A stretch of 64,000 nt of DNA from Escherichia coli (GTDB lineage Bacteria > Pseudomonadota > Gammaproteobacteria > Enterobacterales > Enterobacteriaceae), in assembly GCF_017348835.2 (NCBI RefSeq), contig NZ_CP071375.1. One strand, given 5' to 3'. The notes under the pieces were generated by a model. It had not been told where the DNA came from, did not search any database, and was given only the letters and a program-made list of their open reading frames with translations. Of this stretch, positions 3,371 through 58,682 are shown one piece after another (positions within the stretch are counted from its first letter, which is position 1; each line of letters opens with the position of its first letter). A program made the translations under genes and the position numbers.

Positions 3371-3512
<142 letters not shown>

Positions 3513-25415: not shown

Positions 25416-25521
25416 GTACTCATGCCGGATGCGGCATGAGTACCATATCCTTCCTGAAAATCGCGCAAATTCTATATATTGCAGAGATCATGTAGGCCTG
25501 ATAAGCGAAGCGCATCAGGCA
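25416..25521. repeat. REP elements
   Basis: gtactcatgccggatgcggcatgagtac hairpin and tgtaggcctgataagcgaagcgcatcaggca. Confidence 0.8.
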
Positions 25522-25528
25522 ATGTTAC

Positions 25529-25555
25529 AAAAAAAGCCACGGTATAAACCGTGGC
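25529..25555 (-). terminator. rho-independent terminator of allE
   Basis: gccacggtataaaccgtggc hairpin, followed in the minus sense by a T7 run. Confidence 0.75.
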
Positions 25556-25597
25556 AAAATCCAACATAGCTAAAAATAATCAGGCGAGTGGTATGAC

Positions 25598-47010: not shown

Positions 47011-47087
47011 GCGCCCTTAGCTCAGTTGGATAGAGCAACGACCTTCTAAGTCGTGGGCCGCAGGTTCGAATCCTGCAGGGCGCGCCA
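47011..47087 (+). tRNA. argU: tRNA-Arg (anticodon UCU), argU
   Basis: 77 nt: gcgcccttagctcagttggatagagcaacgaccttctaagtcgtgggccgcaggttcgaatcctgcagggcgcgcca. Cloverleaf with a 7-bp acceptor stem, TCT anticodon in the CTTCTAA loop, GGTTCGAATCC T-arm and encoded CCA. Confidence 0.97.
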
Positions 47088-47102: not shown

Positions 47103-48265
47103 TTACGCCTTCTTTATATCCTCCATAATTCCACAGTGGGACATATTTGGGACATGATCACCAAAAATGTCGTCTATTTTCCTTGCATGCTCTGTCAAAT
47201 GATTAGGCGCAAGGTGAGCATACCTACGAACCATTTCTATGGACTCCCATCCGCCCATTTCCTGAAGCACAGATAATGGGACGCCTGACTGGATCAGCCA
47301 GCTTGCCCAGGTGTGTCTGAGGTCATGGAAACGGAAATCTTCAATTCCTGCACGACGACAAGCTGATAGCCATGATGTCTTGCTGTCGATGCGCATCTTC
47401 CTGACCGCAGGCGTTGATGTTCCATCTGCTCGCTTAGCCGCCTTGGTATGTACAAACACCCATTTGTGATGCTTGCCTATTTGATCACGCAACACTTTAC
47501 AGGCGGTATCGTTCAGCGCCACACCAATGGCGCGGTTTGATTTGCTCTCTTCTGGATTCACCCAGGCAACTCGTCGCTGCATGTCGATTTGTTGCCATTC
47601 CAGATTTATGATGTTCGACTTTCTCAGACCAGTTGCCAGCGCAAACTTGACGACAGATTTCAGTGGTTCGGGGCACTCATCAATAAGGCGTTTTGCTTCC
47701 TCCTTTTCCAGCCATCTGACTCGCTTGTTTCTGACCGCTGGTATCTTGATGACAGGCGCTTTTTCCAGCCACTTCCAGTCGCGTTCTGCAGCACGGAGAA
47801 TGGCCTTTATCATGGCAAGATGCTTTGCCTTTGTCTGAGTTGATACTGGCTTTGGTTCATAAACAGGCGGTTCTTTACCTTTCCTGATGGCGGCCTGAAC
47901 TTTCTGTTTCCATATTTCTTTCGTCTTTCTGTTATGCATTCTGCTTACAGCAGAGTAAATCTTTGCCTCCGAGATATCTTTAAGCCTTATACCCTCAAAA
48001 TGTTCAAGCCAGAACTCAATCCGGCTTTTATCTGAATCGAGAGATTTTTATCAGCTTTTTCCTCAAGCCATCTTAGGCAGGCCTCTTCAAAAGTGACATC
48101 AGGTAAATCCCCTAGCTTTTCTACTCGCCAGAGTTCTGCTTTTCGCTTGTCGTGCAACTCCTGAGCTTGCCGCTTGTCCTTTGTGCCAAGAGATTCCTTA
48201 ATTCGTTTCCCGCCCGGGAGCGAATACGAGGCATACCATATTTCATTTCTGCGGAAGAGTGACAT
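47103..48265 (-). pseudogene. intD: tyrosine integrase IntD-like, split by a -1 frameshift in an A/T run
   Basis: Two adjacent ORFs (92 aa at 47987-48265 and 278 aa at 47103-47939) together reproduce remembered IntD. The frames diverge at the run ttttt (48045-48049): the sequence reads [10 protein letters not shown] here versus the remembered [11 protein letters not shown]. The catalytic R..HxxR..Y region ([14 protein letters not shown]) is intact in the distal part. Confidence 0.8.
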
Positions 48266-50703: not shown

Positions 50704-51066
50704 TTAACGACCTGCTGCGCGGAGTTTTCCGTCAGGTTCACCGGCAAGAGTCAGTAATTGTCCCTGGTCTTCCTGCAGAATAGTCAGGCGACCACCGCGA
50801 TTGACATACATCGGCGTTTCGGTGGTGTCTTCTTCGGAAATTTTCCCGCGGTTAGTCGGGCGAATATATGAGAGTTTGTGTTTGATTTTCACACGGTTCT
50901 CATCAAATGGTTCGATTTCCAGGTTGAGTGAGACCTTACCTTTGGTTTTCGTGTTCATCACACCGGAAGCGACTTCACTGAGAACTGCGCCGATTTTGGT
51001 TTCAAATACGCCGCCGTCCAGCTCCCCGATAAATGCCTGCACATCAGTACTGCGTTCGCTAGCCAT
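50704..51066 (-). CDS. YfdP-like prophage protein (120 aa)
   Basis: Start placed at ATG 51066 (MASERSTDVQAFIGELDGG) behind a GAGGAG SD. The upstream extension in the ORF track lies in the GC-rich noncoding block. Confidence 0.6.
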   Translation of the reverse strand: MASERSTDVQAFIGELDGGVFETKIGAVLSEVASGVMNTKTKGKVSLNLEIEPFDENRVKIKHKLSYIRPTNRGKISEEDTTETPMYVNRGGRLTILQEDQGQLLTLAGEPDGKLRAAGR

Positions 51067-51099: not shown

Positions 51100-51500
51100 C
51101 CGATTAGTTTCTCCACAAAACAGAGAAGAACACCTGTGGTGGCCGCCGCCCGGATGGATTGGGTTATGAGCCCGTCGTCCGGTGATGCTCTTCTCTGTTT
51201 TGTAAAAAGGACGGTACCAGCCGGAAGCAAGGGTACAAGCTGGTACCGCCAGGACTACACACAGCATAAAGTTGTGGTGCCGGGTGCCCTCCCGGTGCCT
51301 GGCGAAGGTTGCACACCAGGCGGGTGGGTATCCACAGAAGGTCGACTGTCAGCCTCAACCTTAACCCGCGTGCGCTGAGCCGCATTCACCACAACGCTAA
51401 GGATTCTCTCTGGTTGAAAATACTTAGCTGTTATGTGCCTGCTTTTAGCCACATCAGGCGAGGTGGACCTGGTTATTCCCCAACAACAAGGATTCGGTTA
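51100..51500 (+). ncRNA. candidate large structured RNA / structured leader (unclassified)
   Basis: About 60% GC in sampled 60-nt blocks and no credible ORF. Perfect helices: 51115-51129/51189-51203 (15 bp), 51212-51221/51239-51248 (10 bp), 51271-51279/51387-51395 (9 bp), 51305-51311/51356-51362 (7 bp), 51396-51401/51423-51428 (6 bp). Helix 51276-51284/51291-51299 has two G-U pairs valid only in the + sense. Strand and boundaries are tentative. Confidence 0.3.
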
Positions 51501-51536
51501 ATCTGGATATCCCCAACAACAATAAGAGTATTCAAT

Positions 51537-52052
51537 GTGATCGCTGAATTAACGGCAGCAATGACGGCTATTCGTGAAACAGCCCAGATTGCAAAACTAA
51601 TGAACGAGGCAAAAACTCAAGCTGAAGTAAATGCGGCTATTGGTGAGCTGAACTCAAAGCTTGCGTCTATTCAGCGCGAATGCGTGTCTCTCGTTGAACT
51701 GGTGGGCTCTTATCAAGAAATAAATGCTTCTCTCAAAGCTAAAATTGCAGAATTCGAAAACTTTGAGGCTCAGACGGAAGGCTATATCCTTAACCAACTT
51801 GAGTCGGGTACTTTTGTATACTCGAAGGAGGTAATCGTGAACGGTGGCAGCATAACCATGCATCTTTGCCCAAAATGTTTTGGACAAAAGATAGTATCGA
51901 TACTTCAACCATTCCCGGTTAGCGAAGATGAGCTTTTTCATAAAAGCAGGTGCCTCCACTGTGAAAATAAGTTTCTGATGAATAAAAATCCGGATTACGT
52001 ATCGCCTCCATCCATTGAGGAGTTGTCCAGAAAACTTAACGGCAATCTGTAG
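51537..52052 (+). CDS. hypothetical coiled-coil + zinc-ribbon protein (171 aa), convergent moron between early-left operon and cI
   Basis: GTG 51537 lies 8 nt after an AAGAG SD. The N-terminal ~75 aa are heptad-like (AQIAKLMNEAKTQAEVNAAIGELNSKLASIQRE...LKAKIAEFENFE). The C-terminus carries CPKC-x24-CLHC. It has its own terminator at 52092-52115. The opposite-strand ORF has antisense-like composition. Confidence 0.6.
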   Translation: MIAELTAAMTAIRETAQIAKLMNEAKTQAEVNAAIGELNSKLASIQRECVSLVELVGSYQEINASLKAKIAEFENFEAQTEGYILNQLESGTFVYSKEVIVNGGSITMHLCPKCFGQKIVSILQPFPVSEDELFHKSRCLHCENKFLMNKNPDYVSPPSIEELSRKLNGNL

Positions 52053-52077
52053 ATTACTACTGTTGTGGATATCCAGA

Positions 52078-52089
52078 TTGTTAAAGAGC
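52078..52089 (-). promoter_or_regulatory. rrn-type boxA (putative nutL) on the leftward early transcript
   Basis: Minus-sense aGCTCTTTAACAA matches the remembered rrn boxA consensus TGCTCTTTAACAA at 12/13. It lies about 200 nt downstream of OL and just after a hairpin. Confidence 0.5.
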
Positions 52090-52091
52090 TA

Positions 52092-52115
52092 AGCGTCCTG
52101 TAGGGCGCTTTTTTG
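52092..52115 (+). terminator. rho-independent terminator of the 171-aa gene
   Basis: agcgtcc-tgta-gggcgct hairpin (one U-G pair in the + sense) followed by T6. Confidence 0.7.
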
Positions 52116-52280
52116 TTGCTAACGAATCATCCTGGACTTCATATGCCCCAGGCGGCTACTTCGTGGGCGTCCTGCCTGTTCGTTTTTGACATTTACTGAC
52201 TGCTTACGACACATGCACCGTGTTGCAACCAGATTTTGTTGTAATCCTGTAGTTGGTCTGGAACAAAAGATAAAATTAAA

Positions 52281-52317
52281 TTGCGAGATATGCAAGCGAT
52301 ATTTGCGAGGTATGCAA
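52281..52317. promoter_or_regulatory. OL: two 15-bp repressor operators (pL region)
   Basis: TTGCGAGATATGCAA (52281-52295) and TTGCGAGGTATGCAA (52303-52317), with starts 22 bp apart. The same word family occurs in the cI-cro intergenic region. Confidence 0.6.
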
Positions 52318-52330
52318 ATTTATAGGTAGT

Positions 52331-52351
52331 AAAAAGCCACCTTTCGGTGGC
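52331..52351 (-). terminator. rho-independent terminator downstream of cI
   Basis: gccacc-tttc-ggtggc hairpin followed in the minus sense by T5, 20 nt after the cI stop. Confidence 0.7.
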
Positions 52352-52371
52352 CGATGGATGGGATATTGAGG

Positions 52372-53064
52372 TTAATTATGTCTCTTAAGGGTTTGCGACT
52401 GACTGATTAAGACCTTTCCAAAGACCATGAATCGGTGTTCGTTTTCGCTAGTAATTCCCCATTCACGGTAAATCTGGTTATCAGAAATCACCAGCAGTTT
52501 GTCAGGAATCATTTGAAGTCTTTTAACGTATATTTTGTCATCAAAACCAAAGACATATATACCATCACCATCAAACTGATTGATGCTGACATCAACGAAG
52601 ATGAGATCTCCTGGCTCAATGGTTGGACACATACTGTCCCCACGAACGTTGATAACTTTGATGTGATTGGCTGGTCGTCCGCCGAACATTGATACAGCAT
52701 TATCAGTTCTGTATTCGATGGCATGAATCACATCAATGACATCACCGCCCTGGATAAGGCCATTTCCCGCACTGGCACTGATATCCAGCATTTCAATACG
52801 GAACACATCCTTCACCTGCGCAACATCCTCATTATTACTGTTTTTATATACAGTATTACTTTTGTGGGCAGAGGTAAAGAGATCAGCAATATCAACACCT
52901 AAGCTCTTGGCAATATTACTCAGTGTTTGTTCGGTAAATTGTTTTTGCTTACCCGTTTCTAAGCGCGAGATGTTCGCCGCATCTACTCCTATTGCTTCAG
53001 CGAGATCGGCGATTTTCATGTTCTTCGCTTGGCGAAGTTGTCTGACTCGGTTTCCTATGTTCAT
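52372..53064 (-). CDS. CI-like prophage repressor (HTH_XRE + S24 LexA-like peptidase)
   Basis: 230 aa. N-terminal XRE HTH (IGNRVRQLRQAKNMKIADLAEAIGVDAANISRLETGK). C-terminal S24 motifs GDSM (nucleophile Ser) and YVKRL (Lys). Confidence 0.88.
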   Translation of the reverse strand: MNIGNRVRQLRQAKNMKIADLAEAIGVDAANISRLETGKQKQFTEQTLSNIAKSLGVDIADLFTSAHKSNTVYKNSNNEDVAQVKDVFRIEMLDISASAGNGLIQGGDVIDVIHAIEYRTDNAVSMFGGRPANHIKVINVRGDSMCPTIEPGDLIFVDVSINQFDGDGIYVFGFDDKIYVKRLQMIPDKLLVISDNQIYREWGITSENEHRFMVFGKVLISQSQTLKRHN

Positions 53065-53084: not shown

Positions 53085-53147
53085 TTGCGTGATAAGCAAA
53101 TCAACTTGCGCAAAATAATTGCGTGAAATAACATGCATAACGCGCAA
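53085..53147. promoter_or_regulatory. OR: operator cluster between cI and cro (pRM/pR region)
   Basis: TTGCGTGATAAGCAA (53085-53099, +) and TTGCGCGTTATGCAT (53133-53147, -), plus TTGCG half-sites at 53106 and 53119. Same family as OL. Confidence 0.6.
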
Positions 53148-53161
53148 TATTTGGAGGGCAT

Positions 53162-53422
53162 ATGCAATCACCATTACGAAATGTGCGTAAGGCGCATGGT
53201 TTCACTTTGCAGCATGTTGCTGCGGGTGTTCAAGTCAATCCAGCGACGTTGAGTCGTATTGAGAGGCTGGAGCAGATTCCATCTATCGAGCTTGCAGAAC
53301 GTTTAGCCAATTTTTTTAAGGGTGAAGTCAGCGAAATGCAGATTCTTTATCCGGCACGTTTTCAATCTAGCCAAAACCAGAATGGGTTTAAACCACAGGA
53401 ACAGGAGGTGAACCGTGGGTAA
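53162..53422 (+). CDS. Cro/YdaS-like HTH antirepressor-type regulator (86 aa)
   Basis: Divergent from cI with a GGAGGG SD. XRE-type HTH (HGFTLQHVAAGVQVNPATLSRIERLEQIPS). Confidence 0.8.
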   Translation: MQSPLRNVRKAHGFTLQHVAAGVQVNPATLSRIERLEQIPSIELAERLANFFKGEVSEMQILYPARFQSSQNQNGFKPQEQEVNRG

Positions 53423-53966
53423 GCATCACTGGAAAGTAGAAAAACAGCCTGAGTGTTACGTGAAAGCTGTCAGAAAAACTATCGCAGCGTTGCCGGGGGG
53501 GTACGCTGAAGCTGCTGACTGGCTGGATGTAACAGAGAACGCATTATTTAACCGCCTTCGTGCCGATGGCGATCAGATTTTCCCGCTGGGATGGGCAATG
53601 ATTTTGCAACGTGCTGGTGGAACTCACTTCATTGCTGACGCTGTGGCGCAGTCTGCAAATGGCGTCTTTGTGTCTCTTCCTGATGTCGAGGATGTGGACA
53701 ACGCCGATATCAACCAACGCCTGCTGGAAGTCATTGAACAGATCGGCAGTTATTCAAAACAGATTCGTTCAGCAATTGAAGACGGTGTAGTGGAACCGCA
53801 TGAGAAGACAGCAATTAACGATGAGCTGTACCTCTCAATTTCGAAGCTGCAGGAGCATGCAGCACTGGTCTACAAAATCTTTTGCGTTTCAGAAAGTAGT
53901 GACGCCCGCGAGTGTGCAGCTCCGGGCGCCGTGGCGTGTCGTGACTGTGGAGAAACTAACGCATGA
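53415..53966 (+). CDS. YdaT/CII-like regulatory protein (183 aa)
   Basis: Overlaps the cro stop. Its position and sequence style recall Rac YdaT-type CII analogues. Family call is from memory. Confidence 0.6.
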
Positions 53967-54301
53967 ACAGTTTAACAACACACTACCGTCGCTCGCAACT
54001 GATTGCGCTTCCTGTACCGGGTGGAAAAGCGAAGGTGGAGTATTGCTATGCAGTAAATGTACCAGGTGACAGGGAAATTGTAACCCACAGCTTTGCAGAG
54101 TGGGCTGTGGGTGATTTCAACCGGCAGAAGGAGACAGTCCTTTGCGACAAGTTAACCGCTGGTTCAAAGATCACTACGGAGTGCCCGTCAGAGTCATTCG
54201 TTGGGAGCCGGAAACACAACGGGTTATCTACCTCCGTGAAGGCTATGAGCATGAGTGCTTCAGCCCGCTCGAACAGTTTCGTCGTAAATTCAGGGAAATA
54301 G
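53963..54301 (+). CDS. hypothetical ORF (112 aa), doubtful over its 3' half
   Basis: ORF-track entry. The distal half is Ser-rich and low-complexity and is overlapped by a better-looking ORF in another frame (54142-54321). Confidence 0.3.
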
Positions 54302-57285: not shown

Positions 57286-58281
57286 GTGAACGTGAGAGCG
57301 CTACTGACCCCCGAGATTGCCCCGCGTATGGGGATCGTATTGTTCAGACCCGGTTCAGAGCTGATGCCCCTGTTTATGCAGGGGCGTGTCCTGCTGGAGC
57401 CTGAGCCGGAACGTTATTCATCTTTTGCCAGTGGTGCCGTTCCGGCTGCATCACAACCGCTGGCGGATGATCCTGCCGTTCGGGCCGTGTTCCGCAATGA
57501 GGCAGTGATCCGTCGTGCTGGTGGCGTGGAATGTCTTGAAAGCTGGTTACTTCGTGAAAAAGGCTGCCAGTGGCCTCATTCCGACTGGCACAGCGAGAAC
57601 ATGACCACAATGCGACACGCGCCGGGCGCAATCCGTCTGTGCTGGCACTGCGATAACCAACTGCGCGATCAGTTCACGGAACGGCTGGAATCAATGGCAA
57701 CGGATAACTGTGCCCGCTGGGTGTTGTCTGTTGTGCGTCGGGATCTCGGTTTTGATGACAGTCACGTTGTGACAATGCCGGAACTGTGCTGGTGGCTGAT
57801 TCGTAATGATCTGGCGGATACCTTACCGGAAAGTGCAGCCCGTAAGGCACTGAGATTACCGAAGCCTTTTGTGCCGTCTGTCACCCGGGAAAGTGACCTG
57901 GTGCCTTCGGTTCCTGCCACCAGCATCATCCAGAATAAAGCGAAAAAGGTGCTGGCGCTGAAAGTGGATCCGGAGTCGCCGGACTCTTTTATGTTACGCC
58001 CAAAACGTCGCCGCTGGGTTAATGAAAAGTACACGCGATGGGTTAAGACGCAGCCGTGCGCATGTTGTGGAAAACCTGCTGATGATCCCCACCACCTGAT
58101 AGGCCACGGTCAGGGTGGAATGGGGACAAAAGCGCATGACCTCTTTGTGTTGCCTTTGTGCAGAAAGCATCACGACGAGCTGCATGCGGATACTGTGGCA
58201 TTCGAAGAGAAGTATGGCTCCCAGCTGGAGCTGATATTTCGTTTTATCGATCGTGCGCTGGCGATTGGTGTGCTGGCCTGA
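57286..58281 (+). CDS. DUF968 (YdfU-like) protein with HNH-like C-terminal zinc motif
   Basis: C-terminus [46 protein letters not shown] start; GTG 57292 is an alternative, 5 nt after GAGG. Confidence 0.7.
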
Positions 58282-58298
58282 TTTTGTGGAGAAAGTTG

Positions 58299-58682
58299 AT
58301 GCGTGATATTCAGATGGTTCTTGAGCGTTGGGGAGCGTGGGCGGCTAATAATCATGAAGATGTGACTTGGTCGTCCATTGCCGCCGGTTTTAAGGGATTA
58401 ATTCCTTCAAAAGTAAAATCTCGCCCACAATGTTGTGACGATGACGCGATGATCATTTGCGGGTGCATGGCCCGTCTGAAAAAGAACAACAGCGACTTGC
58501 ACGATTTATTAGTAGATTATTATGTAGTCGGTATGACATTCATGTCACTGGCAGGTAAGCATTGCTGCTCTGATGGTTATATCGGGAAAAGGTTACAGAA
58601 GGCTGAGGGCATAATTGAAGGGATGTTAATGGCATTAGATATCCGGTTAGAGATGGATATCGTTGTTAATAACTCTAATTAA
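58299..58682 (+). CDS. quuD: late-gene antiterminator Q (QuuD type)
   Basis: Start at [22 protein letters not shown] gives 127 aa. Matches remembered DLP12 QuuD. Confidence 0.88.

Follow-up and report, generated by a model that had tools for sequence, protein, structure and literature searches.

Early-left region of the prophage

The stretch of DNA analysed here, hereafter the window, comprises 64,000 nucleotides (nt) of the Escherichia coli contig NZ_CP071375.1 (assembly GCF_017348835.2) and carries a lambdoid prophage that adjoins the tRNA-Arg(UCU) gene (47011-47087). Its nearest sequenced phages are PhiR29_1, PhiR49_1, SfII, SfV, SfIV and mEp460. The subject of this work is the leader of the early-left operon of this prophage, which would be transcribed on the minus strand from a putative promoter, pL, and which contains a boxA element of the ribosomal (rrn) type and, between pL and boxA, a conserved three-way-junction RNA (hereafter the junction RNA).

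The positions of the main features are listed in Table 1, where ORF stands for open reading frame and sRNA for small RNA. In addition to the two operators of OL, a third exact copy of the operator is found at OR (53085-53099). The sequence of pL is conserved in mEp460, and transcription from it is predicted to start near 52260.

Table 1. Features of the prophage early region, numbered from the first nucleotide of the window.
Feature	Position	Strand	Basis or remark
yfdP-like gene (phrog_204)	50704-51066	minus	first credible translated early-left gene, about 1.19 kb from the putative pL start
Long hairpin, 18-nt arms (about 25 bp in the fold)	51115-51203	minus	between the sRNA terminator and the yfdP-like start
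Strong terminator, hairpin of -26 kcal/mol plus UUUUU	about 51201-51250	minus	end of the sRNA-like block
Structured GC-rich block	51201-51425	minus	weak STnc100 (RF02076)/DicF-like sRNA homologue
Left arm of 26-nt inverted repeat flanking the convergent ORF	51500-51525		repeat search, arms 85% complementary
Convergent ORF, 171 amino acids, phrog_1244 (function not known)	51537-52052	plus	antisense to the pL transcript
Right arm of 26-nt inverted repeat	52054-52079		repeat search
boxA, GCTCTTTAACAA (RNA listing GCUCUUUAACAA)	52078-52089	minus	consensus match
Intrinsic terminator of the convergent ORF, hairpin plus T-run	52091-52110	plus	terminator scan
Three-way-junction RNA, 67 nt	52121-52187	minus (pL sense)	conserved, between pL and boxA
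Putative pL, -10 TATCTT, 17-nt spacer, -35 TTGCAT	52272-52267 (-10), 52295-52290 (-35)	minus	sequence reading
OL, 15-bp operators TTGCGAGATATGCAA and TTGCGAGGTATGCAA	52281-52295, 52303-52317		exact TTGCG-N6-GCAA matches
Intrinsic terminator of the cI-type repressor gene	52335-52352		terminator scan
cI-type repressor (helix-turn-helix and Peptidase_S24)	52372-53064	minus	Pfam/PHROGs scans
cro	53162-53422		rightward side of the immunity region
CII/YmfL-like gene	53415-53966		rightward side of the immunity region
Q-like antiterminator	58158-58682		PHROGs/Pfam scans

A consensus boxA and no N-like gene

Together with the A that precedes it, the boxA of this leader matches the rrn boxA UGCUCUUUAACAA at 12 of 13 positions, as an earlier note on this DNA had claimed, and it agrees at 11 of 11 positions with the gamma-proteobacterial consensus GYTCTTTAANA (Baniulyte et al., 2017; PMC5725501), being the only such match in the window. 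It lies at approximately +172 to +183 (about 175 nt past the putative pL start), is sense-oriented in the leader and is not covered by any credible minus-strand ORF. The hairpin-then-boxA order reported for the transcript was also confirmed, the hairpin at 52091-52110 being a plus-strand terminator that precedes boxA in the pL transcript and is read there in antisense. No conserved boxB-type stem-loop was detected 3' of boxA, which continues into AAUCUGGAUAUCCACAAC, an arm of the inverted repeat. On the rightward side, the word ACAGTTTAACAA (around 53968-53979), formerly proposed as a partial boxA, has three mismatches to the consensus, lies inside overlapping coding sequence and is attributed to chance.

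Scans of the ORFs of both the pL and the pR operons with PHROGs and Pfam profiles revealed no N-like protein (no phrog_271-type match), in agreement with the absence of such a gene suggested previously, and did find the Q-like protein. The same profile library recognised N and Nun in other loci (L066, L069 and L058).

Three ORFs were considered and rejected. The small basic ORF MCRKQSVNVKNEQAGRPRSSRLGHMKSRMIR (52119-52214, minus) was discarded because the SfV transcript starts inside it, leaving no start codon, and because the pattern of conservation is that of RNA helices and not of codons. A minus-strand ORF of 73 amino acids with an arginine-rich N-terminus (51164-51385) was treated as spurious, since it lies inside the STnc100-like RNA described below; K-12 annotates another frame of the homologous block as ymfH. 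Lastly, SfV orf33, considered as a hidden N, belongs to phrog_3195 (function not known) and has no arginine-rich motif.

A conserved three-way-junction RNA upstream of boxA

The junction RNA, which had escaped the earlier note, is 80-100% identical in 54 phage records from many genera, every time in unannotated DNA. Its carriers include SfV, ST64B, ZF40, Yersinia YeP1-3, Pantoea AH07, Klebsiella phages and the T5-like Providencia phage PR1. In ST64B, ZF40 and K-12 e14 it comes directly after the repressor gene and heads the early-left operon, and in PR1 it stands at the start of the pre-early A1/A2 operon. About 190 copies were retrieved by pattern scans of IMG/VR and GTDB, with all high-scoring GTDB matches in Enterobacterales; Pseudomonas, actinobacterial and other pattern matches from outside this order reached at most 27 bits or none and were set aside as chance. 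Among complete E. coli genomes it is present in 1844 of 5426, K-12 (e14) included.

The fold consists of P1 (ACGAA/UUCGU), P2 (GGC-AGGAC-GCC), J2/3 (CACGAAGUAGC) and P3 (CGCCUGG/CCAGG(A)UG, with the loop GGCAUAUGAAGU). When 79 distinct sequences were aligned, 94% of the cells were paired, versus 21-43% with slid partners; P1 and P3 covary extensively, and 10 pairs show changes on both sides. RNAalifold, unaided, recovered the same three-way junction plus an extra G.U pair in 78 of the 79 sequences, and therefore the pL-sense strand is the functional one. The single strands are near-invariant: the junction CACG(A/C/U)(A/G)GUAGCC, the P2 loop (A)GGA(C) and the P3 loop GGCRUAYGAA. This invariance, together with the position and modularity of the element, suggests a host target such as RNA polymerase (RNAP) or the Nus machinery.

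A covariance model built for this RNA scores 92.7 bits at its single copy in the window, the next best score being 11.8 bits, with no second copy on the pR side; neither mEp460 nor the pL region of HK022 (putL) gave a match. Over 52116-52186, Rfam 15 returned no match at E<=10 on either strand. Hammerhead and other known ribozymes as well as riboswitches were rejected on this basis and because, on inspection, the junction strands are unlike the hammerhead core. A search of the available literature with the sequence retrieved unrelated primers only and no description of the motif was found. The junction RNA is apparently an undescribed, widespread RNA family.

A promoter-like site was detected in 52 of 89 distinct upstream contexts (16 and 22 in the controls), with the -10 ending a median of 12 nt before P1; from this spacing, the first nucleotide of the RNA usually falls about 5 nt past the transcript start. 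In the immunity type of the window it lies at about +73 and not at the 5' end. N/Nun-like genes were found at 9 of the 190 loci. One of these loci, L066 (IMG/VR 2848546203_000002), has both N-like (phrog_271) and Nun-like genes in a single early-left operon, about 450-1030 nt after the junction RNA, and its Nun-like protein has the C-terminus HKVVNHAHQRNPKKKW, which is similar to that of HK022 Nun.

Two further features of these leaders were observed. The junction nucleotides AUGA and the 3' strand of P1 often form a mini-ORF, AUG-AUU-CGN-stop (52122-52133, minus, in the window, and many other loci), or AUG-AGG-UGG-stop in the mEp237 type; the stop codon keeps its place despite diverged flanks, but the mini-ORF is not universal and has no proper Shine-Dalgarno spacing. 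A second conserved motif, found in Gifsy/mEp237-type loci, consists of CGCAKCAGGU, a few nt, ACGUUCYG, a short hairpin and GAUAAGG. It follows the junction RNA by 15-60 nt in L042, L012, L039, L133, L145 and others, precedes it in L020, L041, L112 and L122, and lies directly upstream of a conserved basic ORF of 38 amino acids (MIDFARKPGRQQAVKLNFFEVILRRL..., phrog_22279) and a Zn-ribbon ORF (phrog_1520), possibly serving as a further regulatory RNA or as a binding site for a protein.

Recurrence of boxA downstream of the junction RNA

When the junction-RNA loci were clustered by their downstream 150 nt, 66 contexts were obtained. A perfect GYTCTTTAANA was present on the sense strand within those 150 nt in 12 of them, and within 450 nt in 2 more, versus about 0.02 expected by chance, while in none of the 66 was a consensus boxA seen upstream (450 nt) or in antisense. 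The significance of the window boxA derives from this repeated occurrence at an equivalent position in other phages, which, being confined to the sense strand after the junction RNA, shows boxA to be a selected element of the pL-sense RNA. By its sequence, sense position and recurrence, the window boxA is thus a predicted NusB-NusE site.

The arrangement around boxA varies. In E. coli, Enterobacter, Atlantibacter and others the order is junction RNA, A-rich spacer, hairpin and boxA. The hairpin is missing in PR1, with boxA 10 nt past the junction RNA, in Xenorhabdus L175, and in Photorhabdus L186 and L232, where an N/Nun-like gene follows a few hundred nt downstream. K-12 e14 carries the junction RNA but lacks boxA. 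A forward ORF comes after boxA in L014 and L135; therefore, the boxA module is not tied to the convergent gene. The distance to the first sense ORF had a median of 969 nt in leaders with boxA versus 329 nt in those without (one-sided Mann-Whitney p = 0.006, with a crude ORF caller), so boxA tends to go with leaders that have long untranslated stretches. As a leader module, the junction RNA is separate from boxA and older.

Obstacles on the pL transcript

The pL transcript has to pass the terminator of the convergent ORF in antisense, then the ORF itself (611 nt, likewise antisense) and then the structured block, which folds more stably than its shuffles (z = -6.2). Of these obstacles, the terminator and the block had been recognised before, and to them must be added the strong intrinsic terminator with which the block ends. 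The block is not a put-like element: it matches STnc100 over the full model length with 36.5 bits (E 1.4e-5), below the gathering score of 47, including the closing helix GUGGUG/CACCAC and the CACCGGGAGGCACCCGG hairpin. Similar weak matches were detected in the pL operons of SfV (39.5 bits), ST64B (35.1) and e14 (29.2), and DicF matches the block terminator weakly (15.9 bits, E 5.8, in the window; 28.5 bits in e14).

In e14 of K-12 the STnc100-like block (L130 4267-4488) is overlapped by the annotated ymfH, which may be a mis-called ORF. In mEp460 (L001 2100-2330, minus) the leader continues into an STnc100-like block that is divergent and has the same terminator. No promoter-like site was detected on the minus strand between 51070 and 52260 with a stringent scan, which also misses pL.

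The cassette of the convergent ORF

Local BLAST against SfII, SfV, mEp460 and PhiR29_1 revealed sharp mosaic joints at 51466/51467, 52120/52121 and 52187/52188. The segment 51467-52120 is thus a single cassette, present in PhiR29_1, that carries the convergent ORF, boxA and the hairpin, and the ends of the junction RNA (52121 and 52187) coincide with joints. Homologues of the convergent ORF in other species (49-59% identity) have the same convergent placement beside a hairpin and boxA. The hairpin at 52091-52110 is primarily the terminator of this convergent gene: its folding energy is -15.1 kcal/mol on the plus strand versus -8.0 in pL sense, and most variants among relatives keep a C.A mismatch when read in pL sense, where the opposite strand has a G.U pair.

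The left arm of the inverted repeat plus CCCCAACAACAA resembles the sequence that follows boxA in L014 and L135, where a forward ORF comes next. This resemblance suggests that the cassette arose by inversion or can undergo it.

Other features of the prophage and the window

The early-left gene set is of the CPS-53/SfV type, from yfdP to yfdT, and further to the right of the immunity region lie, besides the Q-like gene, lysis genes and the terminase. Between the xis-like gene and tRNA-Arg(UCU) the sole listed integrase-like ORF is an N-terminal one of 92 amino acids (47987-48265, minus); the integrase may be frameshifted or truncated, in which case the prophage would be defective.

Rfam matches above the gathering score elsewhere in the window were, in the order listed, naRNA4 (3386-3463), AgrB (12319-12407), ES036 (25457-25499) and STnc480 (25525-25591), all in host chromosomal sequence and unrelated to the leader. 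SfV (L003 5954-6142) and ST64B (L006 242-430) have IsrK and C4 antisense RNA matches above their gathering scores; these sit in a right-hand 'immunity region' ORF that is the antirepressor control module of P1/Gifsy type, which is absent from the window.

Discussion

The results above point to a modular, cis-acting leader in which an rrn-type boxA, acting with Nus factors and independently of N, would shield the roughly 1.1 kb of untranslated pL RNA from Rho. This Nus-factor-only, rrn-like mechanism remains the best reading of the data, and we hold it tentatively, as quite possible. What stands of the earlier interpretation is the boxA, the lack of N and the obstacles, whereas it had passed over the junction RNA, and its rightward word has been abandoned.

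In such a mechanism, polymerase would start near 52260 at pL, synthesise the 67-nt junction RNA (52187-52121), pass in antisense through the terminator hairpin of the convergent ORF and then make the consensus boxA (52089-52078). NusB-NusE(S10) would bind boxA and, together with NusA, NusG and SuhB, would give a Rho-resistant elongation complex without a phage N, able to cross the untranslated RNA antisense to the convergent ORF and then the STnc100/DicF-like block. At the terminator around 51201-51250 many transcripts would probably be halted, producing an sRNA, and those reading through would express the genes from yfdP to int. The sequences, the fold of the junction RNA, the conservation, the association with boxA and the lack of N are established here, while the start of pL, Nus binding, the effect against Rho and partial termination at the sRNA terminator are what we infer. 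Berg, Squires and Squires reportedly found in 1989 that, in rrn test systems, a consensus boxA alone was enough to carry transcription past Rho-dependent terminators. Since boxA is good at Rho-dependent terminators and weak at intrinsic ones, two steps are proposed: protection from Rho, followed by partial termination at the sRNA terminator.

The likeness to rrn leader antitermination (boxB-boxA-boxC, with NusB, NusE, NusA, NusG, SuhB and S4) includes an identical boxA core, GCUCUUUAACAA(U), a hairpin before boxA, no phage protein and long untranslated RNA downstream. However, the window boxA belongs to a prophage early-left operon and has an extra three-way-junction RNA upstream, its hairpin is the antisense of a convergent-gene terminator and not an rrn boxB, and no boxC was recognised.

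Several observations weigh against this mechanism. Complexes of the rrn type are poor at intrinsic terminators, so boxA alone should not take polymerase past the sRNA terminator. The start site of pL is a reading of the sequence, and 24 of 100 shuffles of the window held at least one consensus boxA, which leaves the match without significance within the window alone. Across the antisense ORF, the pL-sense RNA has no marked bias of C over G (C/G about 0.9-1.3), and a strong rut-like region of this kind is not evident there. The hairpin beside boxA is optimised for the opposite strand. SfII, whose immunity region is the same (99.4% identity), lacks the cassette 51467-52120, and so do SfV and mEp460; therefore, boxA is dispensable for this phage type. 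Moreover, mEp460 has neither boxA nor the junction RNA, yet it shares pL and the yfdP operon and is a viable phage; as the phages of the mEp collection were isolated as being Nus-dependent (PMC11893012), mEp460 is a natural comparison strain. Finally, in L186 and L232, which are Photorhabdus/Xenorhabdus relatives, boxA comes soon after the junction RNA (57 nt in L186) and an N/Nun-like gene follows, and in L066 and L069 boxA lies about 350-370 nt downstream of the junction RNA, just ahead of the N-like gene. These arrangements look like classical nutL sites, and the N-less boxA could be an inherited remnant.

A first alternative is that the junction RNA is itself a put-like, protein-independent antiterminator, with boxA as an optional auxiliary. 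It would bind the elongating polymerase shortly after initiation and render it resistant to intrinsic and Rho-dependent terminators alike. Like the cis-acting put of HK022, which binds the zinc-binding domain of the RNAP beta' subunit, it is a structured RNA of about 70 nt at the start of early phage transcripts, beginning in most lineages about 5 nt past the early-promoter start as putL does (PMC9378689). It is likewise an autonomous module, indifferent to an arbitrary downstream sequence, and most of its carriers are phages without an N antiterminator. Its near-invariant single strands across Enterobacterales would fit a conserved host target, and strong intrinsic terminators lie downstream of it in the window, SfV, ST64B and e14. 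However, homology to put was rejected, since the covariance model fails on HK022 putL and the folds differ: a three-way junction in one case, two stems in a V with conserved U28, G35 and others in the other. In addition, there is one pL-side copy per phage, never one in the pR operon, instead of putL plus putR, the RNA coexists with N-like or Nun-like genes at the nine loci mentioned, it is displaced from the 5' end in the window, and mEp460 manages without it. On balance we regard this alternative as unlikely. The broader proposal that the junction RNA represents a new class of cis-acting, protein-independent leader, functionally analogous to put and sometimes accompanied by boxA, that directly reprograms host transcription at early operons also seems doubtful. 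Its role could be that of a helper directed to RNAP or Nus, a put-like modifier, a stabiliser or a sensor.

Alternatively, boxA could be a relic or hitch-hiker without a current role at pL, either the remnant of a nutL site whose N was replaced by accessory cassettes or a part of the 3' untranslated region, the inverted repeat or the terminator module of the convergent ORF. The mosaic cassette that travels with this ORF family, the inverted-repeat arm that boxA abuts, the optimisation of the adjacent hairpin for the other strand, the chance of 24% of finding a boxA in the window and the order junction RNA, boxA, N in relatives with N would all fit. The likeness to lambda N/nut (boxA, then boxB, with the arginine-rich N) comprises a boxA just downstream of pL and the N-like genes a few hundred nt past boxA in L186, L232, L066 and L069; the window prophage differs in having neither an N-like gene nor a boxB-type hairpin after boxA, and its boxA is the full rrn consensus instead of the lambda CGCUCUUA. 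However, a decaying relic would drift off consensus, whereas a perfect boxA occurs in at least 12 diverged contexts, some without the convergent ORF (L135 and L014 with a forward ORF, PR1 without the hairpin), and always in sense after the junction RNA, never antisense or upstream. A relic is improbable.

A third possibility is that boxA works otherwise, as a Nus-dependent repressor of the suhB type or as a chaperone of RNA folding that ensures that the leader and sRNA transcript is made, with yfdP to int expressed from a promoter to the left of the sRNA terminator. Leaders of the suhB type also have a consensus boxA outside rrn operons, in an mRNA leader and matching the same consensus, but there it lies at most 50 nt from the start codon, where it represses translation and Rho termination ensues (PMC5725501). 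Such a geometry, with no more than about 50 nt between boxA and a sense start codon, does occur in L135/L014 and in PR1, whereas in the window no sense ORF is found for about 1 kb. The sRNA-like block closes with a strong terminator, which weakly resembles DicF. The early-left location of the block is also that of DicF, an sRNA which termination and processing release from the early-left dicB operon of Qin and which thus sets a precedent. The stringent scan mentioned above, which misses pL as well, gave no promoter-like minus-strand site for the downstream genes. We give this possibility little credence. As to the block itself, it matches STnc100 over the full model, although below the gathering score, and canonical STnc100 and PasD, prophage sRNAs whose function is not known, are found in the late region near Q, stx or lysis genes (bioRxiv 10.64898/2026.05.13.724894).

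Finally, the junction RNA might be a sensor or protein-binding leader (a riboswitch, a CsrA-type pair of GGA motifs, a 5' stabiliser against RNase E or an anti-defence RNA) with only an indirect link to boxA. Its aptamer-like build of covarying helices round invariant junction and loop nucleotides, its two conserved GGA motifs (AGGAC in the P2 loop and CAGGAUGA at the P3/P1 junction), the approximately 5 unpaired nt ahead of P1 in most leaders and its position as the first element of operons with accessory or anti-host functions, among them the pre-early one of a T5-like phage, are compatible with this, but the downstream sequence is arbitrary with no conserved expression platform, GGA is missing from the ZF40-type junction and the enrichment of boxA is left unexplained. 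We consider this reading quite unlikely.

To our knowledge, early antitermination in lambdoid phages is the textbook N/nut system, with HK022 put as the one RNA-only exception. Nevertheless, SfV, SfII, ST64B, the e14/CPS-53 types and some Stx phages have Q but no N, and how the long early-left operons of such N-less prophages, broken by morons and terminators, get read had not been addressed before. The recurrence of a consensus boxA in N-less leaders suggests that these phages borrow the ribosomal Nus system directly, and the leader described here would represent Nus/boxA control in the early operon of an N-less phage. As the junction RNA is present in E. coli K-12, genetics is possible at once, and its function bears on prophage induction, excision, the expression of prophage sRNAs and the silencing of foreign DNA by Rho. 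If the analogy with put were true, this type of control would be far wider than put itself, extending to about one-third of complete E. coli genomes, many genera of Enterobacterales and T5-like virulent phages.

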